Made by a program: the position numbers and the translations under genes. The notes under the pieces are model-generated. The model was not told where the DNA came from. It saw nothing but the letters and a program-made list of their open reading frames with translations, and did not search any database. DNA of 64,000 bases from an uncultured Actinomycetes bacterium (lineage in GTDB: Bacteria > Actinomycetota > Aquicultoria > Subteraquimicrobiales > CAMTWV01). The stretch covers positions 94,199-158,198 of the forward strand of contig CAMTWV010000002.1 of NCBI GenBank assembly GCA_947085535.1. Reading direction: 5' to 3'. Positions 12,669 through 47,237 of this stretch are shown here, one piece after another. The stretch's first letter is position 1, and every line of letters begins with the position of its first letter.

Positions 12669-12684
12669 ATTTTTGCTATCTTTA

Positions 12685-12713: not shown

Positions 12714-12752
12714 TAAAGTCAGTAACGAAATTAAATTAAAAGGAGGATTAAA

Positions 12753-29261: not shown

Positions 29262-29274
29262 TTTATTGGCTCAC

Positions 29275-29832: not shown

Positions 29833-29837
29833 TTTCC

Positions 29838-30566
<729 letters not shown>

Positions 30567-30570
30567 CTAA

Positions 30571-31170
30571 TTAAATAGTCACGCCTAATTCGTAACGAAC
30601 GAATCGTCTGATAACAATATTTTCGCCGATTTTTGTAGCAATTTCACCCAGGTAATCTTCAATTTTAATATCAGGATTTTTAATGTAAGGTTGGTCAAAC
30701 AAACAAACTGACTGATAAAATTTTTCTATTCTTCCTTCAGCTATTTTTTCGATAACATGAAGGGGTTTTCTTTCCTCAAACCCTTGAGCTTTGTAAATTT
30801 CAATTTCTTTTTCAATTACTTCCGGCGGCACATCGTCTCTTTTAATATAAAGGGAATTACTTGCTGCGATATGTAAAGCAATATTATGGACGAATTCTTT
30901 AAAGTCTTCGTTTCTTGCGACAAAATCTGTCTCACAGTTTACCTCAACCAGAACTCCGATTTTTCCGCCTGCGTGAACATATGAATCAATGAGTCCTTCT
31001 TTGGTGATTTTAGCGGCTCTTTTTTTAAGTTCAGCTAATCCCTTTTTTCTTAAAAGTTCAACCGCAGTTTCTATATCTCCCTTTGCTTCTTCAAGAGCTT
31101 TTTTGCAGTCCATAAATCCAGCTCCGGTGCGAACGCGTAAGTCTTTTACTAATGATGCGGATAACTCCAT
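30571..31170 (-). CDS. tsf: Elongation factor Ts
   Basis: 199 aa. LRVRTGAGFMDCKKAL UBA-like N-terminus. Confidence 0.96.
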   Translation of the reverse strand: MELSASLVKDLRVRTGAGFMDCKKALEEAKGDIETAVELLRKKGLAELKKRAAKITKEGLIDSYVHAGGKIGVLVEVNCETDFVARNEDFKEFVHNIALHIAASNSLYIKRDDVPPEVIEKEIEIYKAQGFEERKPLHVIEKIAEGRIEKFYQSVCLFDQPYIKNPDIKIEDYLGEIATKIGENIVIRRFVRYELGVTI

Positions 31171-31202
31171 CTTTGCCTCCGTAATTAATTTAACTCTGGA
31201 AT

Positions 31203-31931
31203 TTAAGCTTTTTTAACTTCGACCATATCATCTGCTTCAGGTTTGATGCGGCTTTCTTTGCCTTCAAAGCAGGCGTTGGAAATGATTTTTGTAATTAAAG
31301 CTATGGCTCTTATGGCGTCATCATTACCAGGAATCACAACATCAACTTCGTCAGGGTCACAATTTGTGTCAATAATGGCAATAACCGGAATGTTTAACCT
31401 TCGGGCTTCTTTTATAGCGATTTCTTCCTTTTTTGAATCGACCACAAAAATAGCCGCAGGAAGTTTAGTCAAATTTTTCATGCCGCCAAAGTTCTTTTCC
31501 AATTTTTCTTTTTCTTTAAGGAGTGCTTGCGCTTCTTTCTTGAGTAGTTTCTGAAGTGTTCCATTGGCTTCCATAGCCTCAAGCTCTTTTAATCGCTTAA
31601 TTCTTGATTGAATTGTCTGAAAGTTGGTTAGTGTTCCACCCAACCATCGATTGTTTACGTACGGCATTTCACAGCGAGTAGCTTCTTCTTTTATGGCATC
31701 CTGAGCTTGTTTTTTAGTTCCGATAAATAAAATGTCACCGTTGGTGCTTACTGTGCTGCGAGTAAACTCATAAGATTTTTCGATTCCGACGAGAGTTTTT
31801 TGAAGGTCAAAGATGTGAATATCATTTCGCTTGGTGAAGATGTAATTCTTCATCTTGGGATTCCATCGGCGAGTTTGATGTCCGAAATGCACCCCCGCTT
31901 CCAAAAGCTGTTTCATTGAAACTACTGACAT
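31203..31931 (-). CDS. rpsB: 30S ribosomal protein S2
   Basis: [15 protein letters not shown] motif. Start moved to the ATG at 31929-31931 ([13 protein letters not shown]), with AAAGGAG upstream. The ORF track's 21-codon extension is not S2-like. Confidence 0.96.
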
Positions 31932-32084
31932 ATAGATTTTTTCTCCTTTTCTGGTTTTTTCCCGCCACCCGCTTCGATCTTTTCTTTGCCCCACTTTTGG
32001 CGAGGACCAGAAGAAAAGTCAGCGGATGTGAGTATTTAAAACGGTCAATAGTTTAGCATAGTCAGAAATTAACATCAATTATTT

Positions 32085-32870
32085 TTATTCCAGGACAGCC
32101 TGCGATTTTATTTTGCGAAGATATGTTTTTAACCTGAAAATAGCTTTAGTGTGAAGTTGGGAAACTCTCGATTCAGTTATGCCCATGATTTCCCCGATTT
32201 CTTTTAAAGTTAAACCTTCGTAGTAATAAAGTGCAACCACAATATTTTCTTTATCAGGGAGCCGTTCTATCGCTTTCATAAGAGATTCCTTAAGCTCTAA
32301 AAATTCAAAAACTTTAGAGGGGTCACGAGCAGTCACATCTTCAATTGTGTCAATTACGGCAATTTTGTCTTCCTTGTTTGTGTCAATTGTGTAAAGGTCT
32401 TCAAGTCCGGCTACACAGGAATGGCTTAGTTGAAACATTAAATTGTAAAGCTCATCCTGACTAACATTGAGCGCTTTGGCTAATTCTTCGTCTGTGGGAA
32501 TGCGTTTTAATTTTGCCTCTAAATCATTATAAGTTTTTTCCATTTCTCTTGATTTATGTCTGAGAGAGCGAGGCACCCAGTCCATAGCCCGAAGTTCGTC
32601 GATTATTGCTCCCTTAATTCGAGTTATTGCATAGTTCTCAAATTTGATATTTCGGGATGGGTCGAATTTTTCTATAGCATCGATTAAACCCAGGATGCCA
32701 TAACTAATTAAATCGGCAATCTCAATATTTGATGGGAGTTTGGAGTAAATTTTGCCTGCTACATATTTTACTAAAGGAGCATAATAAAGAATAAGTTTAT
32801 CGCGGGTCTCATTGGATTTGGCTTTTTTATATCCATCCCAGATTTTTTGGATTTCTGGTGCGGTTTCTAT
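32085..32870 (-). CDS. FliA/SigD/WhiG-type (sigma-28) RNA polymerase sigma factor; start codon non-canonical or gene decaying
   Basis: The ORF track gives only 166 aa from the ATG at 32585 (regions 3-4). The same frame stays open upstream to 32951 and encodes a clear region 2 (KLILYYAPLVKYVAGKIY..ADLISYGILGLIDAIEKFDPSRNIKFENYAITRIKGAIIDELRAMDWVPRSLR). There is no in-frame ATG/GTG/TTG in that stretch. AGGAGG at 32880-32885 lies 9 nt upstream of ATA at 32868-32870. Confidence 0.7.
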   Translation of the reverse strand: METAPEIQKIWDGYKKAKSNETRDKLILYYAPLVKYVAGKIYSKLPSNIEIADLISYGILGLIDAIEKFDPSRNIKFENYAITRIKGAIIDELRAMDWVPRSLRHKSREMEKTYNDLEAKLKRIPTDEELAKALNVSQDELYNLMFQLSHSCVAGLEDLYTIDTNKEDKIAVIDTIEDVTARDPSKVFEFLELKESLMKAIERLPDKENIVVALYYYEGLTLKEIGEIMGITESRVSQLHTKAIFRLKTYLRKIKSQAVLE

Positions 32871-32905
32871 TTTTACTCTCCTCCTACTTGTTCTTTTAAT
32901 TAAAC

Positions 32906-33814
32906 CTAAGCACGTGGGTGAGTTTGTTGATAAATTTCTTTTAACTTTGTTTTACTTAAATGAGTATAAACTTGGGTTGAGGATAAATCAATGTGCCCTA
33001 AAAGCTCTTGAACAGACCTTAAGTCAGCTCCACGCTCAAGCAAATGGGTGGCAAAAGTGTGTCTTAAAAGGTGAGGAAAAATTTTAAGGTCACTGCCTAT
33101 TTTTTTAATGTACTTATCCAAGCAAGCTCGAATTGCTCTTTGAGTGAGTCGTTCGCCGTCTTTATTTAAAAATAAGGCTTTTTCAGTTTTTGCTCGTTCG
33201 GGGTGTTTTGAAAGAAGTTTTTTTCGTCCGTTTGCAATGTAGACTTGAATTGACTCGAGGGCTTTTCTGTTTAAAGGAAGGATTCTTTCTTTTCTTCCCT
33301 TTCCGACAACCTTAATTTCGCCTTGAGCAAAATTAACCTCGTTTATATCCATGTTTGTAAGCTCACCAACACGTATGCCTGCGCCATAAAGTGTTTCAAT
33401 CATTGCTTTGTCTCTTTGTCCTAATGGGGTGGTTTCATCAGGTGCAGATATCAATCGTTCTATGAAATCGACTTTTAAAATGCGAGGCAGTCTTTTTTCG
33501 ATTTTAGGAGAAGAAAGCATTGTAGTGGGATTTGTTTTAAGCTGGCTGGTTTTTTTAAGATAAGCGAAGAATGTTCTTAAAGCAGCTATTTTCCTAGCGA
33601 TGCTTGTTTTGCTGTACTTTAAAGTTTGAAGATAAGCAAGATATTGACGAAGAAGATTATAATTGACGTTTGAAAGCTTAATCCTGCTACGCTCGAGAAA
33701 AGTCAAAAATTGAGTTATGTCAAATTTGTATGCCTCAATGGTGTTTAAAGAGAAATTTCTCTCGGAAGATAGATACATTAAAAACTTTTTTAAAGCGTCC
33801 TTTGCTTGTGCCAT
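32906..33814 (-). CDS. xerC: Tyrosine recombinase XerC/XerD (CodV-like)
   Basis: 302 aa. N-terminal SAM-like domain, catalytic HLLRHTFATHLL and LGHIDLSSTQVYTH motifs. Confidence 0.9.
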   Translation of the reverse strand: MAQAKDALKKFLMYLSSERNFSLNTIEAYKFDITQFLTFLERSRIKLSNVNYNLLRQYLAYLQTLKYSKTSIARKIAALRTFFAYLKKTSQLKTNPTTMLSSPKIEKRLPRILKVDFIERLISAPDETTPLGQRDKAMIETLYGAGIRVGELTNMDINEVNFAQGEIKVVGKGRKERILPLNRKALESIQVYIANGRKKLLSKHPERAKTEKALFLNKDGERLTQRAIRACLDKYIKKIGSDLKIFPHLLRHTFATHLLERGADLRSVQELLGHIDLSSTQVYTHLSKTKLKEIYQQTHPRA

Positions 33815-33820
33815 TAATTT

Positions 33821-34912
33821 TTATCGTAACCTGATATAGTTTTTACCGATGTCTTGCTTAACATAACCTTTTAGTTCTAAAATCGTTAAGCAGCCAATAA
33901 CTGTTGCAATATCTAAGTTAATAAGCTGACTTATTTTATCTATGTGTACAGTTTCCCACCCAATAGTTTCAATTATCTGTTTTTCGAGATGAGAAAGCCC
34001 TTCTTCGCTTTCTTTCTTTTCCAGCTTCTTTGTCCGAAAAAGATTAAGAATACTAAGAATATCGTTAGCATTTTCAACAAGATAAGCACCTTGTTTAAGC
34101 AAATTATGAACTCCTTTACTTAAACTGCTTTTGATGTGACCTGGAACTGCCATTACATCTCGTCCTTGTTCGAGAGCAAAATCGGCTGTAATTAAGGCGC
34201 CGCTTTTTTCTGACGCCTCGATAACAATAACGCCCAGAGAAAGCCCACTAATAATTCGGTTTCGGGCAGGAAAGTTTGATTTAAACGGTGGTGTCCCTAA
34301 AGGATATTCTGAGATGAGAGCACCATGTTCTTCAATTTTTTCAAAAAGTCTTCGATTTTCGGGTGGGTAAATAATGTTTAAGCCGCAGCCAACAACTCCA
34401 ATAGTGCTGCCAACTTCCGATACTGCTCCTGTATGAGCAGCTGAATCGATTCCTCGAGCAAGACCACTTACAATTGTTATTCCGCATTTTGATAAATCAC
34501 GGGCTAATTCTTGAGCAAAAGTTTGTCCAGATAGACTGGCTCGACGGGCACCAACAATTGCCACACAGGTTGGAAAATTGGAGAGCGAATGTCCTTTAAT
34601 AAACAAAACCGAAGGAGGACTTGCTATCTCGCGAAGCAAAGGTGGATAGTCAATATCATCCATGGTTAATATTTTAATATTATAGGAAGAAAGTTTTTTA
34701 AACTCTTTATCGAGGTCAATTTTTGCCTGTTTTTCTTTAATTTTTTGAGCTGTTTTTTCAATGACAATCCCTGAATCGATAAGTTCTTTAAGTGAGACAT
34801 TCCAGATGTTTTCAGGAGTTTTAAAATGAGTGAGCAAATACCTTTCTCTGGTTGAAAATTCGCTTATTAATTTTAGTCCGAGCCAGAATTTCTTGTCTGA
34901 CAAATAGTTCAC
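33821..34912 (-). CDS. dprA: DNA processing protein DprA
   Basis: 363 aa. Rossmann-like core with GLARGIDSAAH and a C-terminal winged-helix domain. Confidence 0.92.
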   Translation of the reverse strand: MNYLSDKKFWLGLKLISEFSTRERYLLTHFKTPENIWNVSLKELIDSGIVIEKTAQKIKEKQAKIDLDKEFKKLSSYNIKILTMDDIDYPPLLREIASPPSVLFIKGHSLSNFPTCVAIVGARRASLSGQTFAQELARDLSKCGITIVSGLARGIDSAAHTGAVSEVGSTIGVVGCGLNIIYPPENRRLFEKIEEHGALISEYPLGTPPFKSNFPARNRIISGLSLGVIVIEASEKSGALITADFALEQGRDVMAVPGHIKSSLSKGVHNLLKQGAYLVENANDILSILNLFRTKKLEKKESEEGLSHLEKQIIETIGWETVHIDKISQLINLDIATVIGCLTILELKGYVKQDIGKNYIRLR

Positions 34913-34928
34913 CCTACGGGTCGTAGAC

Positions 34929-36449
34929 CTATTTTAAACTCGTTCTATACTGAATAGCTTCAGCAATATGTCCTAACTCGATATTTTCTGAATTGACTAA
35001 ATCCGCAATGGTTCTTGCCACTTTTAAAATGCGGTCGTAAGCCCTCGCGCTTAAGGCAAACTTATCAACAGCATTTTCAAGAAGCGATTTAGCCGATGGC
35101 GAAAGAGAACAAAATTCCTTAATCTCTTTTGCTCTCATTTGCGCATTCAAAACAATATTTCTTTCATAGAATCTCTCTTGCTGTTTTATTCTTGCCTTCT
35201 GGATTCTTTCTTTTATTGAACTTGATGGCTCACCGCTAAGATTTCCAGAGAGCTCTTCTTTGGTGAGTCGAGGCACCTCAACACAGATATCCATTCTGTC
35301 CATAAGTGGTCCAGAAATCTTATTTCTGTATTGCTGAACTTTTATTGGCGTGCAAACACATTCTTTTAATCGGTCGCCTGAGTGGCCACAAGGACAAGGG
35401 TTCATTGCTGCGATGAGGACAAATTTACTTGGATAAGTAAGTGCTGTAGAAGCTCTTGAAATGGTTACATAACCATCTTCTAAAGGTTGTCTGAGAACTT
35501 GAAGAACACTTTTGCTAAATTCAGGAAATTCGTCTAAAAATAAAACACCGTTATGACTGAGCGAAATTTCACCCGGTTTAGGAAAGTGACCACCGCCCAC
35601 AAGACCAGCATAAGAAATTGTGTGATGAGGGGATCTGAATGGTCGGGTTAAAATTAGAGATGTATTGGAAGCCAGAATTCCAGCAACGCTGTAAACTTTA
35701 GTTGTTTCTATTGCTTCGTTTAAAGTCAAATCAGGAAGTATTGTTGGAATTCGGCGAGCAAGCATTGTTTTACCCGAGCCAGGAGGTCCAATCATTAAGA
35801 CATTGTGGCCACCTGCGGTGGCAACTTCGAGTGCCCTTTTAGCATGTTCCTGCCCTTTAATATCAGAGAAATCGATACCAAAATCAGTATTCGAGGTAAA
35901 AATACTCTTTAAATCAGTTTTTTGAGGTTCAATGATTATTTTATCATTTAAAAAATCAACTACTTCTCTTAGTGTTTTTACTGGAATGACTTTAACGCCA
36001 TCTACTATTGCGGCTTCTCTTGCATTATCAAAAGGGATAATGATTCCCTCTTTTTTCTCATTTTTGGCGCAAATAGCTAAAGAAATAGCCCCGTTAACCC
36101 TTCTTATTTCACCATTTAGAGAAAGCTCGCCAACAATTAAGTATTTTTTAAGGTTATGGTGAGAAATAACTTTAAATGCAGCCAGTGAAGCTAAGGCAAT
36201 AGGTAAATCAAAAGAAGGTCCTTCTTTTTTAATGTCAGCCGGAGCTAAATTTATTGTGATACGCTTTAAGGGAAACTCAAACTCGGAATTACGAATGCTG
36301 GACCTGACTCTTTCTCTTGATTCCTGAACGACTGTATCAGGAAGTCCAACAATGTTAAAAGCAGGTAAGCCCGTTGAAATATCAGCCTCAACCTCTACTT
36401 TTATAGCTTCCAGTCCGTAAAGTGTAGCGCTTTCTAATTTAGCAATCAA
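34929..36449 (-). CDS. comM: Mg-chelatase-like AAA+ protein YifB/ComM
   Basis: 506 aa. Lon-like N-terminus, Walker A GPPGSGKTMLA, Walker B LFLDEFPEF, and an inserted CPCG zinc motif. Confidence 0.9.
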   Translation of the reverse strand: MIAKLESATLYGLEAIKVEVEADISTGLPAFNIVGLPDTVVQESRERVRSSIRNSEFEFPLKRITINLAPADIKKEGPSFDLPIALASLAAFKVISHHNLKKYLIVGELSLNGEIRRVNGAISLAICAKNEKKEGIIIPFDNAREAAIVDGVKVIPVKTLREVVDFLNDKIIIEPQKTDLKSIFTSNTDFGIDFSDIKGQEHAKRALEVATAGGHNVLMIGPPGSGKTMLARRIPTILPDLTLNEAIETTKVYSVAGILASNTSLILTRPFRSPHHTISYAGLVGGGHFPKPGEISLSHNGVLFLDEFPEFSKSVLQVLRQPLEDGYVTISRASTALTYPSKFVLIAAMNPCPCGHSGDRLKECVCTPIKVQQYRNKISGPLMDRMDICVEVPRLTKEELSGNLSGEPSSSIKERIQKARIKQQERFYERNIVLNAQMRAKEIKEFCSLSPSAKSLLENAVDKFALSARAYDRILKVARTIADLVNSENIELGHIAEAIQYRTSLK

Positions 36450-36459
36450 ATTGCTCCTC

Positions 36460-36801
36460 CTAAAAAGCGTTTTCTATGTGAATAATCTCTGTTCTATCTT
36501 CATTGACAAGAATTCCTATAACGTCAAATCTGAATGATTCCGCTTGAGGCTTGTGGAAAGCAATAAAAGAATCAGCAAGTTTTTTTAATCTTTTCTGTTT
36601 TGAAATATTGACAGCCTCAAATGGTTCGCCATATTTTTTATTGGACCTTGTTTTTACTTCAACAAAGACAAGAGTCTTTTTATTAAAAGCAATTATATCA
36701 ATTTCACCAAATTTTAAGCGATAATTTCTTTCAAAAATTTTAAAACCTTTTTTGAGAAGAAGCTGGCAGGCGAGGTCTTCGCCTTGAGATTTGAGTGGCA
36801 T
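36460..36801 (-). CDS. yraN: YraN-family (UPF0102) endonuclease-like protein
   Basis: 113 aa. GEIDIIA...VFVEVKTR pattern, located next to rnhB. Confidence 0.85.
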   Translation of the reverse strand: MPLKSQGEDLACQLLLKKGFKIFERNYRLKFGEIDIIAFNKKTLVFVEVKTRSNKKYGEPFEAVNISKQKRLKKLADSFIAFHKPQAESFRFDVIGILVNEDRTEIIHIENAF

Positions 36802-36804
36802 AGC

Positions 36805-37449
36805 TTAACCTTCGCATATTAATTTTTTAATGGGAGAAAAGTTTTTCCGATGGATTTTTGACGGACCCCATCGGGCAAGTGCTTCCTGGTGATATTTTGT
36901 TCCGTATCCTTTGTTGAAAGAGAACCCAAAGCTGGGAAACTCTTTATCGAGTTTATCCATAATTCTATCTCGTGTAACCTTGCACACTATTGAGGCAGCA
37001 GCAATGCACGCACTTATGGAGTCACCTTTAATTAAAGCTTTATTGGGAATTTCCAAATTGGGCAGAAGATAGCCGTCAGAAAGAACAAAATCGGGCTTAA
37101 CTGAAAGTTTTTTAACCGCTTCTTTGAGACATTCAAGATTTGTTTTTTGCAGTCCGAGAGCTTCGATTTTTTTTACGTCAAAAATAGCGACGCTCCAAAA
37201 GCAAGAATCAGTAATTGTTTTAAATAGTTTTTCTCGAGTCTTAGGAGTTATTTGCTTGCAATCTTTTAATCCAGAAATAAAAACATTTTGAGGAATGATA
37301 ACTGCGGCAGCAACCAGCGGTCCAGCCCAGGCACCCCTTCCTGATTCATCAACACCAGCAATTAGCTGGTATTTCTTACTGCGTAAATCATTTTCAATTT
37401 GACACAAATTTTTAAAATCTTCAATTTCGAGGTTATCCTTGGCTTTCAT
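36805..37449 (-). CDS. rnhB: Ribonuclease HII
   Basis: 214 aa. GVDESGRGAWAGP and DSK-type motifs. Confidence 0.93.
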   Translation of the reverse strand: MKAKDNLEIEDFKNLCQIENDLRSKKYQLIAGVDESGRGAWAGPLVAAAVIIPQNVFISGLKDCKQITPKTREKLFKTITDSCFWSVAIFDVKKIEALGLQKTNLECLKEAVKKLSVKPDFVLSDGYLLPNLEIPNKALIKGDSISACIAAASIVCKVTRDRIMDKLDKEFPSFGFSFNKGYGTKYHQEALARWGPSKIHRKNFSPIKKLICEG

Positions 37450-38045
37450 TCTCGACCTATTAAAGCAATTCTGTGAGGGGGCCAGTAAGTTAAAATTGCT
37501 TTTCCAATTATTGTGTCTTTATCTATGGGTCCGAAAATTCGACTGTCCTGACTGCTTGGACGGTTATCTCCCATCACAAATAATTTGTCTTCAGGGATAG
37601 TTATAGGTCCAAAGTTGCTCAAATCAGGCATATTAATCAAATAAGGTTCATCAATTTTTTTGCCGTTGATGTAAACAATGCCACTTTTAACCTCAATAGC
37701 TTCGCCCTCAGTAGCGATAACTCGTTTAATGTAGTCTTTGTGAGAGTCAAAGGGTGCTTCAAAAACAATGATATCGCTTCTTTTGGGTTCTCCTAGCCAG
37801 TAGGAAAATCTGGCGACTAATACACGGTCGCCGGGGTAAAAAGTGGGTTCCATTGAACTACTTGGAATCATGAACGGTTGAACAATAATGGTTTTAAGCA
37901 AAAAAGCTAAAATGTAGGCAATTACGAGGATAAAGAAGACTTCTTTTATAAATACCCAGACTAAGTTAACAGGTCTTTCAGATTTGGTTTGTTCAAAAGA
38001 ATCAGAACCAGACTCCTCAAAATCTTCTTCGTTATTCAAATCCAC
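37446..38045 (-). CDS. lepB: Signal peptidase I
   Basis: 199 aa. GTG start, TM helix, catalytic-Ser motif SSSMEPT, KRVIA and GDNRPSSQDSR motifs. Confidence 0.9.
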   Translation of the reverse strand: MDLNNEEDFEESGSDSFEQTKSERPVNLVWVFIKEVFFILVIAYILAFLLKTIIVQPFMIPSSSMEPTFYPGDRVLVARFSYWLGEPKRSDIIVFEAPFDSHKDYIKRVIATEGEAIEVKSGIVYINGKKIDEPYLINMPDLSNFGPITIPEDKLFVMGDNRPSSQDSRIFGPIDKDTIIGKAILTYWPPHRIALIGRE

Positions 38046-38057
38046 GCTTTCCTTTCC

Positions 38058-38408
38058 TTAAGAGTCCTGTCTTTTTTCTTTAATTCGAGATGCTTTGCCA
38101 ATTTTTTCACGCAGGTAATAAAGTCGGGCTCGTCGTACTTTTCCTTTCGTTGAAACTTCAATTTTGGAAATTCGGGGGGAATGCAGTGGGAATGTTTTCT
38201 CTACCCCTACACCAAAAGAAATTTTTCTTACCGTGAAGGTTGATTTAATTCCACTTCCCTGTTTTCTGATGACTGTGCCTTGAAAGACTTGAATTCTTTC
38301 ACGGCCACTTTCACTGATTTTGTAGTGGACTTTAACTGTATCGCCTGTATCAAAAACAGGCAAATCTTGTCTCATATTCTCTTTTTCGTAAACATCGATT
38401 TCCTGCAT
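38058..38408 (-). CDS. rplS: 50S ribosomal protein L19
   Basis: 116 aa. Typical L19 sequence ([26 protein letters not shown]). Confidence 0.96.
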
Positions 38409-38470
38409 CGTAGTCGCCTCCTTAAATCAAACAAAGTCGAATTATAACACAGTTCATTTTGGATTAAAAG

Positions 38471-39214
38471 TTATTTTGAGATTAGCCCTTTTATTTCTTT
38501 AAGGATTTCTTTCTCTTCTTCAGTTAAGGAGTCTTCGTAAATTAAATCAGGACGTCTTGCAAGTGTCTTTTCTAAAGATTTGCGTATTCGCCACTTCCTT
38601 ATAGCTTCATGATGACCACTTATGAGAATCTCAGGCACTGCCCAGCCTTGCCATTCGCGAGGACGAGTATATTGGGGGTATTCCAGAAGACCGCGGGTAA
38701 ATGTTTCTTCGGCAAGAGACTCACGTTTGCCGAGCACTCCAGGAACTAAACGAATAACACTGTCAACTAACGCCATAGCTGCATATTCTCCTCCTGAAAG
38801 AATATAATCCCCAATTGAAATTTCATCAGTTGCCAGATTTTCGTGGACTCTTTCGTCAATTCCCTCATATCTTCCGCAAAGAACAATAAGGTGCTTTTCT
38901 CTTGATAGCTCTTCGGCTAAACGTTGATTAAAAGGTTTGCCCTGGGGGGTAAGTAAAATAACTCTTGGTTTTCCTGAAATTGAATTTTTAGAGATGGATT
39001 CAACAGCTTCAAAAAATGGCCCAGGTTTCATAACCATACCAAAACCTCCGCCATAAGGTGCATCATCAATTTGAGAATGCTTATTATGCACATAATCTCG
39101 CAGATTATGTAACTTAACATCAACAAGCTTTTTTTCAAGAGCTATTTTAATAACGCCCTCTTTCAGGGTTGACTCAAACATTTGAGGGAAAATAGTGATG
39201 ATATCGATTTTCAT
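38471..39214 (-). CDS. trmD: tRNA (guanine37-N1)-methyltransferase
   Basis: MKIDIITIFPQMF... and GRYEGIDERV motifs. Start moved to the ATG at 39212-39214, with TAGGAG 7 nt upstream. The ORF-track start at 39253 would overlap rimM. Confidence 0.95.
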   Translation of the reverse strand: MKIDIITIFPQMFESTLKEGVIKIALEKKLVDVKLHNLRDYVHNKHSQIDDAPYGGGFGMVMKPGPFFEAVESISKNSISGKPRVILLTPQGKPFNQRLAEELSREKHLIVLCGRYEGIDERVHENLATDEISIGDYILSGGEYAAMALVDSVIRLVPGVLGKRESLAEETFTRGLLEYPQYTRPREWQGWAVPEILISGHHEAIRKWRIRKSLEKTLARRPDLIYEDSLTEEEKEILKEIKGLISK

Positions 39215-39224
39215 AGAAGTACTC

Positions 39225-39734
39225 CTAAAATAAGCCTGGTATCCTTGACACAACCATTCGTTTTCGTTTTAAGTCAATTTTTTTAATTACTTCTTTAATG
39301 GCAGGTATTAAAATTTCGGTTTGTTCATTCGAAATCACGTAAACATCATTTGCCGGCGTTTTTATTATCTCCTTGATTATACCAAGAAGTTCGCCTTCTT
39401 CCGTAAAAACATCAAGACCAATGATTTGGTAAATCCAGAAGTGTCCTTTGGGCAATTTTTTTGTTTCGTTAGACGGGACTTCGAGCCAATATTCGACAAT
39501 TTCATTTGCTTCGCCTCGATTATTAATTTCTTCAAATTTAACCAGTCCGAAATCGCCCCTAAAAGAAGCATGTTCAACTTTGAGGGTTTGATATTTGCCG
39601 TGTGGCGGATAAACATAGAATATTTGTCCTTTGGCAAATCTTTCAGGAAAATCTGTGTGGCTTGCCACTTTAGTCAAGCCTTTTGTGCCATGAACAGAAA
39701 CAATTTTACCGACAGCTATGAACTCATCAGCCAT
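39225..39734 (-). CDS. rimM: 16S rRNA processing protein RimM
   Basis: 169 aa. VGKIVSVHGTKG N-terminus and a PRC-barrel C-terminus. Confidence 0.92.
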   Translation of the reverse strand: MADEFIAVGKIVSVHGTKGLTKVASHTDFPERFAKGQIFYVYPPHGKYQTLKVEHASFRGDFGLVKFEEINNRGEANEIVEYWLEVPSNETKKLPKGHFWIYQIIGLDVFTEEGELLGIIKEIIKTPANDVYVISNEQTEILIPAIKEVIKKIDLKRKRMVVSRIPGLF

Positions 39735-39780
39735 ACTATCATTATTAATTGTAAATTGAAAATTGTAAATTGTAAAAAAC

Positions 39781-39975
39781 AGTTAGCAGATGGCAGATAG
39801 CTTATGGGAGAGGGATTAGTGAAGAGAGAGGAGTCTGGAGGAAAAAATCTTTTAGTATCCCTTTAGACTTCCTGCCTGCCCTGTCTGCCGACAGGCAGGC
39901 ATCAGACACGGTAGACCCATCCCTTTTCCCTAAATTAACTGGAAGCTGGTAACTGTGCTATTAGCTATCGAGGCT
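39781..39975 (-). repeat. Intergenic repeat element, copy D (long form, inverted relative to copy A, with inserted GC hairpin)
   Basis: The reverse complement is collinear with 244-413. The core 39801-39841 matches at 38/41. An extra segment, 39871-39901, carries the TGTCTGCCGACAGGCAGG hairpin shared with copy B. It is flanked by a TGTAAATTG-type AT-rich tandem at 39749-39779. Confidence 0.8.
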
Positions 39976-40035
39976 GTAAAGCTGAGCTATGTCGCTATGT
40001 CGAGAGACGATTGAAATAAAGAAGGCGGATAAAAA

Positions 40036-40266
40036 TCAATCGATAATTTCAACAATTGCTCTTTTGTTTTCTTTAGCTGCGGCAGCTCCCACAATTACTC
40101 TAAGGGCTTTAGCTATCCTTCCCTCTTTACCGATTACTTTACCAATGTCGTCGGGAGCAACTTTTAATTGCAAAATGACAGATTTCGCACCTTCTACTAT
40201 GCTAACATCAACTTCCTCGGGAGTGTCCACAAGCGCTCGGGCTAACGTCTCTAACAGTTCTTTCAA
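40036..40266 (-). CDS. ylqC: KH-domain RNA-binding protein (YlqC family)
   Basis: 76 aa. VIGKEGRIAKALR GxxG motif, at the conserved position after rpsP. Confidence 0.88.
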   Translation of the reverse strand: MKELLETLARALVDTPEEVDVSIVEGAKSVILQLKVAPDDIGKVIGKEGRIAKALRVIVGAAAAKENKRAIVEIID

Positions 40267-40320
40267 CTCAGCACCTCCTATTCTTTCTCAACGGGTTTCG
40301 CTTTGGTTGACGCCTTGGAT

Positions 40321-40677
40321 TTAGACGGTTTTTTTTGCCTCAACAGTCTTTTTTGCTGGAGCTTTTTTAGCGGTAACTTTTTCTTCTGGCAACTTTTCTT
40401 TTGACTCTACTTTCTTTTCTACTTTTTTTGTAGGAAGAGCTATATTTGCAATTTTAAGCAGCTTTTCCACTGTATTAGTAGGTTTCGCTCCTTGCGAAAG
40501 CCATAATAACGCTCTTTCTTCATCCATTTTCACAAAGGAGGGTTCTTGCCTCGGATCATATTGACCAATGATTTCGATAAATCTACCATCTCTCGGCATC
40601 CGAGAATCTGCTATAACAACACGGTAAAATGGCTTATTCTTGCTGCCCCCTCTGCTTAATCTGATTTTGACTGCCAA
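40321..40677 (-). CDS. rpsP: 30S ribosomal protein S16 with a Lys/Ala/Glu-rich C-terminal tail
   Basis: [22 protein letters not shown]-terminus. The last ~37 aa are the low-complexity K/E/A tail. Confidence 0.95.
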
Positions 40678-40695
40678 TCACTCACCTCCTTATTC

Positions 40696-42030
40696 TTATT
40701 TCATAAACGGAAAAAACTTTTTACCAAAAGGTACACGATTAATTTTACCAAACTGTTTCACTATTTTACGCATTTGTTCAAATTGTTTCAATAACTGATT
40801 TACATCCTGAATGGTTACACCACTTCCCTGCGCAATCCGAGCTCGTCTGTTTCCGTTTAAGATGTTTGAATTTTTTCTTTCCTCTGGCGTCATCGATTGG
40901 ATGATTGCCTGAGTACGCACAAAATATTTTTCATCTACTCGGGTATCATTGCTTTTTAATTTATCTAAACCGGGAAGCATTTCAAAAATCTGGTTAACAG
41001 GACCCATTTTCCTCAAGTCTTCAATTTGACTTAAAAAATCTTCCAAAGTTAGCTCTTGCTTTTTTAATTTATCTTCAATTTGTTTAGCTTTTTCGAGGTC
41101 GATTACCTCTTCAGCTTTTTCTACGAGTGTAAGAACATCGCCAAATCCTAAAATACGAGAGGCAATTCTATCAGGATAAAATATTTGCAAGCTATTAGAT
41201 TTTTCTCCAAAGCTAGCAAAATAAATTGGTTTTCCTGTGATGGATTTAACTGAAAGAGCAGCTCCACCGCGGGCATCACCATCAAGTTTGGTCATAATTA
41301 ATCCGTCTATTCCCACTTGCTCATTAAACGAAGAAGCAATATTTACAGCATCTTGACCTGTCATGGCATCGACAACCAAAAGTATGTAATGCGGGTGAAC
41401 CTCCTGTTTTATTCTAAGAAGCTCGTCTAACATTTCTTTATCAATATGAAGACGTCCAGCAGTATCTAAAATTACCGCGTCATAAAAGCCTGAAGAGGCT
41501 TCGCTTACTCCCTTTCGGGCAATTTCAACAGGAGATGTTTTTGGTCCCAATGAAAAAAATGGAACAGAAATTTCTTCACACAAAGTTTTTAGCTGGTCAA
41601 TAGCTGCGGGACGATAAATATCTGCTGCTATTAATAGAGTCTTTTTGTTTTGTTTTTTTAAAAAGTAAGCCAACTTTGCTGCTGTTGAAGTTTTTCCTGA
41701 ACCTTGAAGTCCGACAAGCATAAAAATGGTGGGCGGTTTAGAGGAGTAAGAAACTTTTTGAGGTGTGTTTCCCAGTAGCTCCACAAGTTCATCATGAACA
41801 ATTTTTATTATTTGTTGAGAAGGAGTCAGGCTTTTTGTAATTTCAGTTTTTTCTATTTTTCCTCTGATGTTTGAAATAAAATCTTTGACAACTTTAAAAT
41901 TGACATCGGCTTCGAGCAAAGCCAGTCGAATTTCTCTCAAGGTCTCATCAATGTCTTTTTCATTAATAAAACCGCGACTGCGAAGCTTTCGAAAAGTTTC
42001 ATTTAATCGTGAGGATAAGAGGTCAAACAA
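40696..42030 (-). CDS. ffh: Signal recognition particle protein Ffh
   Basis: 444 aa. GLQGSGKTST, DTAGR and TKLDGD motifs, with a Met-rich M domain. Confidence 0.97.
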   Translation of the reverse strand: MFDLLSSRLNETFRKLRSRGFINEKDIDETLREIRLALLEADVNFKVVKDFISNIRGKIEKTEITKSLTPSQQIIKIVHDELVELLGNTPQKVSYSSKPPTIFMLVGLQGSGKTSTAAKLAYFLKKQNKKTLLIAADIYRPAAIDQLKTLCEEISVPFFSLGPKTSPVEIARKGVSEASSGFYDAVILDTAGRLHIDKEMLDELLRIKQEVHPHYILLVVDAMTGQDAVNIASSFNEQVGIDGLIMTKLDGDARGGAALSVKSITGKPIYFASFGEKSNSLQIFYPDRIASRILGFGDVLTLVEKAEEVIDLEKAKQIEDKLKKQELTLEDFLSQIEDLRKMGPVNQIFEMLPGLDKLKSNDTRVDEKYFVRTQAIIQSMTPEERKNSNILNGNRRARIAQGSGVTIQDVNQLLKQFEQMRKIVKQFGKINRVPFGKKFFPFMK

Positions 42031-42044
42031 AGTCGTCTCCTTAT

Positions 42045-42971
42045 TTACTCTGACAAGAGGGCTTCCGTGAATTCATCAGGATTAAATTCACGCAAATCTT
42101 CCAAGCCCTCACCTATGCCAATTAGTTTAATGGGTATTTTTAGTTCGTCCTGAATAGCTATAACTATGCCGCCTCTGGCTGTACCGTCAAGCTTAGTCAG
42201 AATTATTCCATCAATACCCAGAGTTTCTTGAAAAACTTTTGCCTGGGTAATTCCGTTGTGTCCTGTCGTAGCATCAACCACAAGAAGTGTTTTTAAGTTC
42301 GCCTTGGGTGCCTCGCATTCAATTATGCGTTTAACCTTTTTTAGTTCTTCCATTAAATTTAAATAAGTATGCAGTCTTCCGGCCGTATCGATTAATAAAA
42401 CATTTGCTTTTCGGGCAAGTGCAGCGTGTACAGCATCAAAAGCTACAGCCGAAGGATTAGCGCCGCGTTTATGGCAAACACACTCAATGTCTAATTTTTT
42501 TGCCCAGACTTGAAGCTGTTCAATAGCAGCAGCCCTAAAAGTATCCGATGCGCAAAGTATTGGTTTTAAGTTTTTTTGCTTCACCTGATGGGCCATTTTT
42601 GCAATGGTAGTGGTTTTACCTGTGCCATTAACTCCCACAATTAAGAAGACATTTAGCTGATTGTCCTTTAAAAGTACATCCTCTTCCTTTCTTAAAATGG
42701 TTATTAATTCCCCCTTTAGATACTCCAAAATTTCCGGAGGATTTTTTAATTCGCCTCTTTTAACTTTCTCTTTTAAGTTGGAGACAAGCTTTATAGTAGT
42801 AGTCACACCTACATCAGCCCCAAGGAGTATTTCTTCGACTTTTTCCCAAACATGTTCTTCGAAACGAGTAAGTCGAGGAAAAATAGAAGAAAGCTCATGC
42901 GTAAGATTCTCGCGACTTTTTCTCAATCTTCTCTTAAGTTTTTCAAACAATTTTTCATCGGTAATTTTCAT
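42045..42971 (-). CDS. ftsY: SRP receptor FtsY
   Basis: 308 aa. GVNGTGKTTT, DTAGR and TKLDGT motifs. Confidence 0.95.
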   Translation of the reverse strand: MKITDEKLFEKLKRRLRKSRENLTHELSSIFPRLTRFEEHVWEKVEEILLGADVGVTTTIKLVSNLKEKVKRGELKNPPEILEYLKGELITILRKEEDVLLKDNQLNVFLIVGVNGTGKTTTIAKMAHQVKQKNLKPILCASDTFRAAAIEQLQVWAKKLDIECVCHKRGANPSAVAFDAVHAALARKANVLLIDTAGRLHTYLNLMEELKKVKRIIECEAPKANLKTLLVVDATTGHNGITQAKVFQETLGIDGIILTKLDGTARGGIVIAIQDELKIPIKLIGIGEGLEDLREFNPDEFTEALLSE

Positions 42972-45900
42972 ACTGCTTCACGCTCAGCGTTAAGTTTTTG
43001 TGAAATCAGTTTGGAAACACCATCAGCCTGCATGGTTGTGCCATAAATTGTGTCAGCCATTTCCATGGTTCGTTGCTGATGGGTGATGATTAGAAACTGA
43101 GTTTTGTCCTTTAACCTTAATAAAAGATTAATGAAGCGCTGAAGATTAGCTTCATCCAGAGACGCTTCAACTTCATCAAGGATGTAAAATGGGCTAGGCC
43201 TTGTAAAGTATAGGGCAAACAAGAAAGCTAAAGCAGCGAGTGCGGTTTCGCCCCCTGACAAAAGAGAAAGTTTCTGAAGTTTTTTCCCTTGCGGCTGAAT
43301 CTGTATCTCAATTCCTGACTCAAGAAGATTATCTTCTTTTTCTAAAACAATCTCAGCTTTTCCACCGGGAAATAAATAAGAAAAAACGGATTGGAAATTC
43401 TTATTAACTTCAACAAGAGTTTGGGCAAATTTTTCTTTTATTTTTTCATCTATTGCTCTGGTGACTTTTTCTAAAGCTTTTTTGCTATGCGATAAGTCAT
43501 TTATTTGTTCGTTCAAGAATTCATAACGCTCATCAAGCTCTTTAAATTCCTCAAGCGCCATGGGATTAACAGGACCCAGACTGCTTATTTTGCGCTTAAT
43601 TTCGCCAATTTTAGTCTGGCACTCAGAGTAAGAAATTTTTAGAGGATAATTTTCAAGTGCTTTCTCGAGCGGCGTATCGTATTCATCGACAATTTTTTCA
43701 ACAGCTGAGGTGATTTGTCCTTCCAACTGCACCCGACTTAATTCTTTTAAGCGTAAATCTTCTTGAAGTGTCTCTTTTTTTGCCTCGCATCCCTCTTTTT
43801 CTTCTTTAAGTTTTTTGAAAGCCCGCCTGATTTCTTCAAAGAATGTTTCATCCCCTGAAGCAATATCAGTCAGTTTCGCCGCCCACCAGTTTCCTTTTTC
43901 GTATAGGGCGGTAAAGAGCTCATAAGTGGGTTGTATGCGACCGACTAAAACTTCAAGCGCTTGAGAAATTTTGTGTTCGGATTCAGTTAAACTTTCAATT
44001 TCTCTTAAATCCTGATTTAATTTTTCTTTTTGCTGGTTTAGATGATTTTTTTGATTGACCAGCGATTTTAAATTAACTTCATTTTCCATTATTTTATGGC
44101 TGAGAGTAAGTTCTTCTTTATGGTTTGCATTTAATTCAACTTTGAAAACCTGGAGAGCTTCCTTTGCTTCATCTATTTTTGCTACAATATTTTTACTTTC
44201 TTTTGAGAAATTTTCTTTTGTGGTTTTGTCAATCTTTATTTCTTCACCAAGTTTATTTGACTCATTTTCAGCTTTTACTAAGTTATCTTTAAGCTTAATT
44301 AAGTCAGCCTCAAAATTGTGTATAGTCACTTTAAGAATTTCAATTTGAGAAGACTCATTGTTTAGCTTTTGTTGATATGAAGCTAAATTTTCTTTTGTTT
44401 GAGCGAGCCTTTCTTTATCTTTTTTAATTTCTGCCTCTAAAGTTGAAATCCCATGAGTTAATTTATTTTTTTCATCTTCAAGTGCTGTAAGCTCTCTTTT
44501 TCTATTTAAGATTTCCGAGGAATTGTTGCCAGCGATATTCCCGTAGCTTATTTTAAATGGGCAAAACACTTTGCCATTAGTTGTAACAAAAGTTAAATCA
44601 GAGCTTGTTTTATCGCTTAAACAACTGTCTTCGTTGATCAAATAAATATCTCTGGTTAGATACTCAATCGCCGATTTAAATTTTTCGTTTATTTCAATAA
44701 CGTCGCTTAATTTTTGTCCATTTGATTTGTGAGTATCAGGCATAGGAAGATTATTTATTGGAAGAAAAGAGATACCGCCCTGAATCGAGTTTCTTCGAAT
44801 AAGCCCAAGAGCATTTAAAGCCGTTTCTTTTGTGTCGCAAAGCACTGTGAATAAGTCAGGACCTAAAGCTGCCTCCAAAGCTTGTTCAAATTTAGGGGAA
44901 ATTTTAATTAAATCAATAAGGCAACCTGCTATGCCTTGAGGTTTGTTTTCTTTTTTTAATAACCAAGCTACTGCCTCAGGATAACCGGTTAAGTTGTTGT
45001 TCATGCCTTGAAGAGCATTGCTTTTTGATTTGCATTCAGCTGATTTTATTTTTAAGTCAGATAACTTCACCAGATGATTGTCTAATTTAAGTTGAACCTT
45101 ATTTAGTTCCTCTTCTAATTGTTTTATTTCTTTCCGGGAGTTTTTAATGTTACCCTCAAACCCTTCTCTTTCTTTGCTTTTAGCTTCAATTAACTTATTT
45201 AGCTCACTTATTTTTGTGAGATTAGAATTTCTTTCCGAGTCGATGAGTTTTAATTTTTCTTCGTTAAGGGTAATTTTTCTGTCAATATCAGATAACTTGT
45301 GCTGAATTTCAGAAAGATAAGCAGTGTTTTTATTAAGCGTCTCTTCCAAATTTTCAATCGTTTCTTCCAGATTAGAGCTTTTCTTAGTTTGATTTTCTTG
45401 AGAATTTTTAAGTTCATTTAAAGTATTTTCAATATGGCTTATTTCTTCCTCTGTTTTTTTCTTTCTATCATTTGTTTCTGTTATCTCTTTGTTCTTTTGG
45501 GTCTTTTGTTTTTCAAGCCGGTAAATTTCCTGCCGAATCTCGCTCATTTTTTCAATTAAGTGTTTACCTTTTTCCTCTAAAAGCAACATACTGCTATGAA
45601 GTCTTTCCTGAATAGCAGCAAGATGTCTTCTTTGTTCACTTAAATTTCCGGTAAAAAGTCTTTTCTCCTCTAAAGAGATCTGAAACTCTTCAATTTGGGT
45701 TTCTTTTTGTTTAAATTCATTTTTAAAAGTTTCAAAGCTTTCTTTTAACTGCTTTTCCTCTAAATTAAGCTTTTCCCATCTCTTTTGCATCTCTTTTAAT
45801 TCGAAAATTGTCTGACTTAGCTCTAACGTTTTTAACTCGTCGGTCAGCTTCTGGTATTCTTGAGCTTTTTCCGCCTGAGATTTTATGGGTCTAAGTTGAC

Positions 45901-46501
45901 GATGTACTTCTTGAGAAATATCTCGAATTCTTGATAGAGTTTGCTCCATTGACTCCAATTTTTTAATTGCCTTTTCTTTCCTTTTCTTATACTTCAATAC
46001 ATGAGCAACTTCCTCAATTAGAAGCCTTTTTTCTTCTGGCTTACTGGTTAAAATTTCTTCTAATTTCCCCTGACTGATAACAGAGTGGCACTCCCTTCCC
46101 ATTGCGGAGTCAGATAATAATTCCTGGATATCAAACAGTCGGCAAGGGGAATTATTTATGAAGTACTCTGAATCACCTGAGCGAAACAGACGGCGGCTAA
46201 TTGTTACCTCAGAAAATTCCAGGGGTATACTTTTATCTGAATTATCCATACAAAGAGTAATCTCGGCTAAGCCTAATGCTGGACGAGCGCTACTACCAGC
46301 AAAAATTACATCTTCCATAGCAGTGCCTCTAAGCGAGCGTGGACTTTGCTCTCCCAGCACCCAGAGGACTGCATCAGAAATATTACTTTTGCCGCTGCCG
46401 TTTGGACCTGCAATTACAGTTATTCCTGGTTTAAACTTTAAAATTGTTTTATCAGCAAAGGATTTAAATCCTTTGAGCGTTAAAGATTTAAGATACATCA
46501 A
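42968..46501 (-). CDS. smc: Chromosome segregation protein SMC
   Basis: 1177 aa. Walker A GPNGSGKSN, long coiled coils, hinge, signature LSGGE, Walker B ILDEVEASLD. Confidence 0.96.
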   Translation of the reverse strand: MMYLKSLTLKGFKSFADKTILKFKPGITVIAGPNGSGKSNISDAVLWVLGEQSPRSLRGTAMEDVIFAGSSARPALGLAEITLCMDNSDKSIPLEFSEVTISRRLFRSGDSEYFINNSPCRLFDIQELLSDSAMGRECHSVISQGKLEEILTSKPEEKRLLIEEVAHVLKYKKRKEKAIKKLESMEQTLSRIRDISQEVHRQLRPIKSQAEKAQEYQKLTDELKTLELSQTIFELKEMQKRWEKLNLEEKQLKESFETFKNEFKQKETQIEEFQISLEEKRLFTGNLSEQRRHLAAIQERLHSSMLLLEEKGKHLIEKMSEIRQEIYRLEKQKTQKNKEITETNDRKKKTEEEISHIENTLNELKNSQENQTKKSSNLEETIENLEETLNKNTAYLSEIQHKLSDIDRKITLNEEKLKLIDSERNSNLTKISELNKLIEAKSKEREGFEGNIKNSRKEIKQLEEELNKVQLKLDNHLVKLSDLKIKSAECKSKSNALQGMNNNLTGYPEAVAWLLKKENKPQGIAGCLIDLIKISPKFEQALEAALGPDLFTVLCDTKETALNALGLIRRNSIQGGISFLPINNLPMPDTHKSNGQKLSDVIEINEKFKSAIEYLTRDIYLINEDSCLSDKTSSDLTFVTTNGKVFCPFKISYGNIAGNNSSEILNRKRELTALEDEKNKLTHGISTLEAEIKKDKERLAQTKENLASYQQKLNNESSQIEILKVTIHNFEADLIKLKDNLVKAENESNKLGEEIKIDKTTKENFSKESKNIVAKIDEAKEALQVFKVELNANHKEELTLSHKIMENEVNLKSLVNQKNHLNQQKEKLNQDLREIESLTESEHKISQALEVLVGRIQPTYELFTALYEKGNWWAAKLTDIASGDETFFEEIRRAFKKLKEEKEGCEAKKETLQEDLRLKELSRVQLEGQITSAVEKIVDEYDTPLEKALENYPLKISYSECQTKIGEIKRKISSLGPVNPMALEEFKELDERYEFLNEQINDLSHSKKALEKVTRAIDEKIKEKFAQTLVEVNKNFQSVFSYLFPGGKAEIVLEKEDNLLESGIEIQIQPQGKKLQKLSLLSGGETALAALAFLFALYFTRPSPFYILDEVEASLDEANLQRFINLLLRLKDKTQFLIITHQQRTMEMADTIYGTTMQADGVSKLISQKLNAEREAV

Positions 46502-46523
46502 TGCCTCTTTGTCAAAGTTGATA

Positions 46524-47237
46524 TTATTTAATTATTTTTAAAGCTTTTAAGACTTCTTTAGCAGCTAACTGTTCAGCCTTCTTTTTACTGCCTGCTTTTC
46601 CCTGTTTTTTTATTTTCGAACCTATGTTTACCTCGACATGGTAAAGTCTATTATGTGGCGGACCTAATTCTGAAATAACTTTATATTCAGGCATAAGCTT
46701 AAATCTTTGAACAGCTTCTTCTTGCAGGGTTGTTTTAAAATCAAAAAACTTATTTTCGCTTGAAAGTTTTTCAATAACTTCGCCAAAGAGTTTTGTTAGA
46801 AACTTCTCCGCTTTCCTTAAACCCTGGTCGAGAAAGATAGCGCCAATAATAGCTTCAAAACAACCACTTAATATTGAAATATTTTCTTTAACCCCAGCGA
46901 GCTCAACACCCTTTCCGGTTTGCACAAAATTTTCCAGATTTAACTTTAGAGCTAATTCGTACAATGTCTCCGAGTTGACTGCTGCTGCTCGCAGTTTGGA
47001 CAGTTCACCCTCATTATAACTGGGGAATCTCGTGTAGATAAACTTGGTTATAGCAAAGTTAAGTACAGAATCCCCTAAAAACTCAAGTCTTTCATAGTTG
47101 TTAATTTTATCTTTAGACTCGAAAACAAACGAACGGTGTGTCAAAGCATTAGATAGAAGAGTTTTATCTTTAAATGAAACATTCAGAGCTTTTTCGGCTT
47201 GCTTAAGCAATTCAATTGAGATCATTTTTTTAATCAA
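46524..47237 (-). CDS. rnc: Ribonuclease III
   Basis: 237 aa. ERLEFLGDSVL signature and a C-terminal dsRBD. Confidence 0.95.
   Translation of the reverse strand: MIKKMISIELLKQAEKALNVSFKDKTLLSNALTHRSFVFESKDKINNYERLEFLGDSVLNFAITKFIYTRFPSYNEGELSKLRAAAVNSETLYELALKLNLENFVQTGKGVELAGVKENISILSGCFEAIIGAIFLDQGLRKAEKFLTKLFGEVIEKLSSENKFFDFKTTLQEEAVQRFKLMPEYKVISELGPPHNRLYHVEVNIGSKIKKQGKAGSKKKAEQLAAKEVLKALKIIK

Follow-up and report, generated by a model that had tools for sequence, protein, structure and literature searches.

What does a 301-nucleotide (nt) non-coding spacer do in the middle of the rpsP-khpA-rimM-trmD-rplS operon of an uncultured Actinomycetes bacterium, and how did it come to lie there? 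We approached this question in 64,000 nt of contig CAMTWV010000002.1 (hereafter the window, whose coordinates are used unless another contig is named), which has a G+C content (GC) of 38% and finds its best named protein relatives in metagenome-assembled genomes (MAGs) of Actinomycetota, RimM being 64% identical to that of a 'Candidatus Subteraquimicrobiales' MAG (L003). On the minus strand the genes run ftsY, ffh, rpsP, the KH-protein gene (khpA), rimM, trmD, rplS, lepB and rnhB. The alignments show a small non-coding repeat mosaic at a pre-existing point of punctuation between rpsP-khpA and rimM-trmD-rplS; we think it probable, though well short of secure, that it uncouples the latter genes in part. 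In E. coli, the rpsP-rimM-trmD-rplS operon has to supply far less RimM and TrmD than S16 and L19, a difference achieved mainly post-transcriptionally and within a compact operon; the gene set and the need are the same here, whereas a long repeat-bearing spacer (in relatives, a hairpin) stands between khpA and rimM.

The spacer between khpA and rimM

The spacer extends from the khpA stop codon (40036) to the rimM ATG (39734), itself the earliest ATG, GTG or TTG after a stop in its frame, and occupies exactly the 301 nt (39735-40035) that the original prediction had given it. Two independent Logan assemblies (ERR3478695 and ERR3478706) contain the same 301 nt save for one single-nucleotide polymorphism (SNP), indicating that the spacer is real. 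Open reading frames (ORFs) within it are short or antisense, none exceeding 35 amino acids (aa). A scan of the whole window at Rfam gathering scores returned no matches, and permissive scans of 39600-40150 (E <= 10) and of contigs L002, L003 and L007 (E <= 1) gave chance-level matches only. An Rfam Histone3 match inside rimM fell below threshold and was rejected. The companion claim, that adjacent genes elsewhere in the window lie 0-60 nt apart, holds for the most part, with most other intergenic gaps shorter than 35 nt; it fails at two repeat-bearing spacers, one of ~220 nt (about 1121-1340) and one of 325 nt (8500-8824), as well as at a 253-nt divergent promoter region (12500-12752). In the direction of transcription, the spacer and its two flanking genes comprise the following features.

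40036-40266, minus strand: khpA-like KH-domain gene of 76 aa (PF13083 KH_KhpA-B, E 3e-24), the spacer's upstream neighbour
39957-40035, minus strand: 5' spacer block of 79 nt with degenerate 7-8-nt repeats (GCTATGTC twice), common to the sister strain
39779-39956, minus strand: copy D, an imperfect palindrome of the A type, 178 nt (136 nt plus a nested insert of 42 nt)
39870-39911, minus strand: GC-rich hairpin nested at the apex of copy D, 42 nt, 67% GC
39776-39855, minus strand: right arm of copy D, C-rich and G-poor, rut-like in composition
39773-39778, minus strand: T6 (U6) tract directly 3' of the long hairpin, read from the sequence
39735-39776, minus strand: AT-rich array of TTTACAA-type heptads, 14% GC, the rimM leader
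39225-39734, minus strand: rimM (PF01782/PF24986), with no Shine-Dalgarno sequence

Each of the three parts that had been proposed for the spacer is present: a copy of a dispersed repeat, a GC-rich hairpin and a tandem of AT-rich heptads. The 5' block is unstructured (fold of -7.6 kcal/mol, z +0.7), with a repeat called by Tandem Repeats Finder (TRF) at 39986-40002. Copy D folds at -62.8 kcal/mol, its 38-nt outer arms (spacer nt 80-117 and 220-257) being 74% complementary, and in the minimum-free-energy structure the outer stem closes at ...GCUAACUGU with UUUUUU directly after. Before the rimM ATG the array reads TTTACAA TTTACAA TTTTCAA TTTACAA TTAATAA TGATAGT, recognized by TRF as an AATTGTA tandem at 39747-39776 (period 7, 4.3 copies), and the leader is essentially unstructured (-0.8 kcal/mol, z +1.3).

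Punctuation and turnover at the joint

The length of the khpA-rimM joint varies among relatives, listed here with their identity to the window.

L027-30, KH protein 84%: spacer of 0 nt
L013/14, TrmD 65%: spacer of 46 nt
L004-6 and L010-12, TrmD 66%: spacer of 89 nt
L031, KH protein 82%: spacer of 130 nt
L003, RimM 64%: spacer of 355 nt, unrelated and non-heptadic
Sister strain L025, 98.2% at the nucleotide level over 11.3 kb: spacer of 362 nt

Across this comparison (0, 46, 89, 130, 355 and 362 nt) there is no uniform long spacer. The 89-nt spacers hold a 9-bp GC-rich hairpin followed by GUUUUCCCUUU, the whole L010 spacer folding at -30 kcal/mol, and the L003 spacer opens with a 13-bp hairpin followed by UUUAAUUU (-19 kcal/mol). 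Simple terminator and promoter scans made no calls in L003 or L010; the hairpins apparently escaped because their loops exceed the scanner's 8-nt limit, and we judged these structures by folding and by eye. In the sister strain, khpA is directly followed by 58 additional nt that fold into a strong hairpin with a U-rich tract behind it (-18 to -24 kcal/mol, z -4.2 to -4.8; judged by folding, never scanned); the window is without this segment, as seen from a 58-column gap in the alignment between 40026 and 40025. These terminator-like hairpins make a post-khpA hairpin look ancestral to the closest relatives.

The sister spacer, taken from MAG contig L025 (GCA_964480305.1), is partly tiled by Logan contigs L026, L002 and L008 at 100% identity. 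Beyond the gap, window and sister share the next 69 nt with about 5 mismatches. Opposite the palindrome and hairpin of the window (39956-39797), the sister carries AT-rich DNA unrelated to them and homologous to a second repeat-bearing spacer of the window, spacer B (match at 1200-1337, 67% over 143 nt, BLAST E 6e-10; matched in both orientations), and the 39797-39956 portion of copy D is absent. Homology resumes at 39796 with CTGCCATCTGCTAACTG, a T-run, xxCAATT heptads (four units in the window, five in the sister) and AATAATGATAGT-ATG. This alignment marks the khpA-rimM joint as a hot spot with a strain-specific cassette, and the presence of different repeats in the sister points to ordinary, fast-turnover repeat DNA. 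Judged from the aligned strains, the repeat cassette is turning over within the species, its palindrome flanked by hypervariable heptad arrays.

These comparisons bear out only in part the original idea that a repeat insertion split a normally compact operon and could create a processing site, an internal terminator or an internal promoter. Repeat DNA has indeed expanded here, against spacers of 0, 46, 89 and 130 nt in relatives, and the element at 39797-39956 is strain-specific with respect to a 98.2%-identical sister. The joint was nevertheless not an unpunctuated one, as it already has a hairpin and T-rich tract in the nearest relatives; nor did the insertion bring the promoter-like heptads, which lie outside the strain-specific element and are common to the sister.

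Two further features of the joint in relatives deserve mention. The L003 spacer (1135-1489) contains GC-rich segments (cggtcgggg..., caccggccgcc...) in a contig of 38% GC, has no Rfam match and may be another repeat or an unannotated RNA. In L027/L028 (2732-3275), where the spacer is 0 nt, gene calling yields two rimM ORFs, one of 60 aa and one of 88-118 aa, which may reflect a frameshift, a pseudogene or an assembly error.

A dispersed family of heptad-built repeats

The palindrome in the spacer belongs to a dispersed family, which we call A-type. BLAST aligned the spacer to a copy at 316-440 with 98/126 identities (E 1e-22), and a family hidden Markov model (HMM) matched the spacer at 39780-39873 (E 7e-27) and 39909-39955 (E 2e-9), on either side of the nested hairpin. 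Once its insert is removed, copy D shares 104/125 identities with copy A and 96/130 with a copy in the Actinomycetota MAG UBA9087. Two full copies and one half copy lie in the 64-kb window, and they are listed here with spacer B.

271-405, plus strand: copy A, full (HMM E 8e-44), with no GC hairpin and flanked by CCATAAG heptads (378-399)
8767-8814, plus strand: copy C, half an element (its right half), lying between a gene for an M16 peptidase and dapB (HMM E 1e-8)
1121-1340, plus strand: spacer B, an AT-rich palindromic B-type element with C-rich heptads and a 21-nt GC hairpin (1179-1199)

Copy A has the opposite orientation to copy D relative to transcription, and copy C is ~85% identical to both. 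The UBA9087 copy (L007 3609-3744) lies between cobU and cobQ on a contig of 50.6% GC and was the single match in a scan of public genome contigs with the element core; the core had no matches in JGI metagenomes (two independent patterns) and none in viral contigs. All four repeat sites of the window, like the cobU-cobQ site, lie between same-strand genes. A 23-pair hairpin is shared by the three full copies, with one-sided changes that are G-U compatible. Reverse self-matches of the family HMM reach an E of about 0.03, and the arms are imperfect and heptad-made rather than sharp terminal inverted repeats.

A 7-nt period runs through these sequences. Lag-7 autocorrelation gave z of 5.6-6.1 in spacers A (96-414), B (1163-1340) and D, B alone giving 5.6, and z of 3.6 in spacer C (8500-8824), while two control spacers stayed at ~0. 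Periodicity extends to the spacer of the sister strain (z 7.3) and to the copy in UBA9087 (z 4.9), and the spacers of more distant relatives showed none. TRF placed arrays of period 7 or 14 at 378-399, 1262-1276, 1281-1323 and 39747-39776. The periodicity of the repeat-bearing spacers indicates a repeat family built from diverged heptads, some of them of the GGGAxxx type. Such units also vary in the population, copy A carrying a 14-nt (two-heptad) indel polymorphism between assemblies. We conclude that the A-type repeats form a previously undescribed family, built from heptads and hosting a nested mini-hairpin module, in an uncultured, low-GC lineage of Actinomycetota.

The mini-hairpin merits separate treatment. 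The 42-nt hairpin at 39870-39911 folds at -23.5 kcal/mol (z -2.9) and is missing at the corresponding alignment position of both copy A and the copy in UBA9087, a first filled/empty pair. Its 18-nt core, CCTGCCTGTCGGCAGACA, recurs at 1183-1200, and CTGCCGACAGGCAG is found twice in the window against 0.11 expected. At this second site, in spacer B, a 21-nt hairpin segment (1179-1199) is an insertion with respect to the homologous sister-strain segment, giving a second filled/empty pair. With two such pairs in two different host repeats, the GC hairpin is, on alignment evidence, a separate insertion module; it is palindromic, with two copies seen and no doublets. Spacer C (8537-8590) holds another GC-rich inverted repeat, CACCTGCCCGCC...GGCAGGCGGGTCAGGTGG, whose sequence is unrelated to that hairpin. 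A further variant occurs in L024 (1281-1371, from ERR3478710), which is window-like up to spacer nt 83 and then has a variant palindrome and hairpin that differ by several SNPs and a deletion of 4 nt, the hairpin reading TGTTGGCAGACA; the contig reflects either a strain-level allele or a switch to a paralogous copy that has the hairpin as well.

In several independent assemblies, contigs break off within the repeats or at them. The left end of copy D coincides with breaks in the assembly graph, L022 stopping at spacer nt 83 and L024 diverging from nt 84. Heptad-built repeats thus fragment metagenome assemblies of this lineage, and many contigs end there. Four independent Logan contigs from different samples (L015, L017, L018 and L019) all end at ...ATGCTCCCG, at about window position 259, a point within a GGAAGT...ACTTCC hairpin that lies just beyond copy A; the shared end suggests a graph branch, caused either by a further copy with the same end or by rearrangement in the population. 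A different tandem, a perfect 14-nt repeat (AAAATAGACAAGAA, 2.1 copies) at 12641-12669 in the divergent intergenic region, may be an operator-like direct repeat.

We compared the family with known classes of small repeats. The closest are the heptameric intergenic simple sequence repeats, namely the short tandemly repeated repetitive (STRR) sequences of Calothrix and Nostoc and the GGGNATC type. The GGGNATC / GGGGA(T/C)T repeats of Xanthomonas and Nostoc lie between aligned ORFs, vary by site among close relatives and form stem-loops when inverted, with no established function (PMC4692102, Rehm et al. 2015, who also cite tandem heptanucleotides in Calothrix). The window repeats likewise have 7-nt units, including GGGAxxx, are non-coding and lie between co-directional ORFs, with inverted stem-loop arrangements and length and sequence variation at the same site. 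They differ in that their units are highly degenerate (2-4 perfect copies per array) and form conserved modules of ~136 nt that are themselves dispersed, and in their host, an uncultured low-GC actinomycetotal lineage. Copy D also lacks the four regularly spaced G-tracts that characterize the quadruplex of the GGGNATC subclass: three sense-strand tracts are close together (GGG-A4-GGG-AT-GGG) and the next GGG is 33 nt off, and in copy A, which does have four tracts, the loops measure 4-18 nt.

Resemblances to other classes are partial. Miniature inverted-repeat transposable elements, or MITEs, such as the Neisseria Correia element, can supply sigma-70-like promoters, RNase III/E sites and terminator-like hairpins (PMC10969869). 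The A-type element resembles MITEs, which span 100-200 nt, end in inverted repeats and are co-transcribed with their neighbours, in being small, non-coding, multicopy and intergenic; unlike for them, no target-site duplication and no cognate transposase or insertion sequence (IS) was seen here, the arms are only 74% complementary and, unlike in Correia, the promoter-like sequence belongs to the adjoining heptad array, outside the element. Pneumococcal BOX, RUP and SPRITE repeats are modular, mutually nested and structured as RNA, with likely effects on co-transcribed genes (PMC3049150, Croucher et al. 2011). The window elements share variable sub-unit numbers, nesting in each other, intergenic clustering and restriction to one species and its nearest relatives, yet have no sequence relationship to the pneumococcal repeats and a heptad substructure that those lack. 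Small dispersed repeats have been named as a class comparable to repetitive extragenic palindromic (REP) sequences and REPINs (PMC3116915, Bertels & Rainey 2011). Like these, the 18-42-nt GC hairpin is a tiny palindromic module landing inside other repeats, although, unlike REPINs, it was seen in two copies without doublets and no RAYT gene lies in the 64-kb window. Small dispersed repeats of Nostoc reportedly insert into heptamer arrays. Membership of the A-type element in the MITEs, or of the GC hairpin in the REPINs, is not established.

Expression signals and competing explanations

Several signals in the spacer bear on expression. The right arm of copy D (39776-39855) has 37% C and 7% G in 70-nt windows, giving it the highest C-minus-G value of 6393 minus-strand windows, and the sole U-tract in the spacer (39773-39778) follows the 178-nt composite hairpin with its AT-rich base. 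At rimM, the duplex with the anti-Shine-Dalgarno sequence is the weakest of the window's well-defined starts (+0.6 kcal/mol, against -8 to -15 for neighbours and -13.8 for the strong khpA pairing). Upstream lies a promoter-like TTTACA-17-AATAAT (39769..39741, a 10/12 sequence match only), which is retained in the sister strain and whose -10 box ends at 39741, 7 nt before the ATG at 39734. So placed, this candidate has the geometry of a sigma-70-type promoter with a leaderless start. In the mechanism we favour, the 301 untranslated nt would be co-transcribed with rpsP-khpA, and the long hairpin, U6 and the C-rich, G-poor stretch of ~80 nt would lower read-through by Rho-dependent polarity or weak intrinsic termination. 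The cassette would in this way stand in for the terminator-like post-khpA hairpin of the closest relatives, missing in the window strain. Transcription of rimM would restart from the heptad-derived TTTACA-17-AATAAT as a leaderless messenger RNA or, alternatively, translation may start without a Shine-Dalgarno sequence on the unstructured AU-rich leader, the net effect being partial uncoupling of rimM-trmD-rplS from rpsP.

A number of observations weigh against this mechanism. A simple scan found no canonical rho-independent terminator on the minus strand of the spacer, and intrinsic terminators do not typically take the form of a 178-nt hairpin on an AT-rich base. Pairing is predicted between the C-rich and G-rich arms and would conceal a rut site. 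In copies A and C and the UBA9087 copy the element runs the opposite way relative to transcription and no U-tract comes after it, indicating that the family as such is not a terminator. Promoter-like sites in 38000-42000 are not enriched (12, against 9.2 +/- 2.9 in shuffles), and the sister strain manages with a different cassette at the joint. As regards the element itself, the three full copies show no compensatory base changes, leaving selection on the hairpin structure unproven. By inspection, no direct repeat that would mark a target-site duplication flanks copy D, copy A or the UBA9087 copy (the copy D site in the sister holds another repeat and gives no true empty site), and no partner transposase or IS was found, although whole genomes were not scanned; the only recombinase in the Pfam-annotated stretch L001 (~29200-46960) is a Phage_integrase-family (Xer-type) gene adjoining dprA. 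Without a terminal duplication or a partner transposase, mobility of the element is inferred solely from its distribution.

Because of the points against attenuation and restart, a serious rival remains: the cassette may be neutral or selfish passenger DNA without regulatory consequence, polymerase reading from rpsP through to rplS and rimM being translated without a Shine-Dalgarno sequence on its AU-rich leader. We consider this possible and clearly the less probable of the two. It fits a family that sits between unrelated co-directional genes in both orientations, a cassette that differs between 98%-identical strains and hence requires no particular sequence, and the lack of a canonical terminator or of enriched promoter-like matches; similar conclusions were drawn for pneumococcal BOX/RUP/SPRITE (PMC3049150), and no function was found for GGGNATC heptamers (PMC4692102). 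It sits less well with 301 untranslated nt that include the most C-rich, G-poor minus-strand stretch and would be expected to expose the transcript to Rho, with the hairpin that relatives keep at this joint, which suggests that punctuation there matters, and with the missing Shine-Dalgarno sequence and the exact -10-to-ATG spacing, both of which become coincidences if the DNA is a passenger. Attenuation with partial uncoupling would explain these features and stays our preferred account. A bolder version of it strikes us as unlikely: the heptad arrays would serve as landing or recombination pads that swap structured modules (conventional terminator hairpin, AT-rich palindrome, GC-rich palindrome, mini-hairpin) at operon punctuation, the rimM array would be a slippage-tunable leaderless promoter and turnover would tune dosage.

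Less probable again is a functional structured nucleic acid, be it a multicopy small RNA, a cis-acting RNA, a G-quadruplex or a protein-binding array such as a C-rich target of KhpA. The ~75-83% identity kept between copies in genomes 12 GC points apart argues for it, as do the conserved 23-pair hairpin with its G-U-compatible changes and the likeness of the GGGAxxx heptads to the quadruplex-forming GGGNATC of Xanthomonas and Nostoc, also found between aligned ORFs (PMC4692102). There is, however, no Rfam family, compensatory changes are absent, both orientations occur among the copies, the closely spaced sense-strand G-tracts of copy D number only three and the sister strain does without the element at khpA-rimM. 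That the spacer is an assembly artefact, a chimeric join of repeat-bearing reads, is barely credible: contigs from several samples do break in or beside repeats, yet both independent Logan assemblies span khpA-rimM with the same sequence, differing by the one SNP, and one MAG contig together with three Logan contigs covers the sister spacer without conflict.

Upstream of the spacer, three genes complete this part of the locus.

42045-42971, minus strand: ftsY
40696-42030, minus strand: ffh
40321-40677, minus strand: rpsP

S16 has 118 aa in the window and in Logan assembly ERR3478695, 138 aa in the sister (L025 2573-2989) and 95-102 aa in relatives. The window rpsP stop (3' end 40321-40345) comes after an A8 run, and the 54-nt rpsP-khpA gap, one frame over, encodes the sister's S16 tail (by eye), so that the difference looks like a homopolymer frameshift truncating a lysine-rich tail. 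In the relatives of 44% GC, a Pfam-less gene of 350-352 aa lies on the opposite strand immediately upstream of ffh (L004/L005 1918-3803; L010-12 210-1268), accompanied in L004/L005 by a helix-turn-helix gene between ftsY and ffh, which are adjacent in the window. A suspected frameshift in the sigma-factor gene at 32085-32905 did not hold up, the gene proving intact (225 aa, 96% identical to the sister's).

The khpA-rimM cassette opens no long-standing question. Were the landing-pad version true, the dosage of ribosome-maturation factors would be adjusted from strain to strain. If the mechanism we favour is true, small repeats would have replaced a conventional terminator inside a universally conserved ribosomal operon and the promoter for the restart would come from a heptad array, all of this within 2% divergence.

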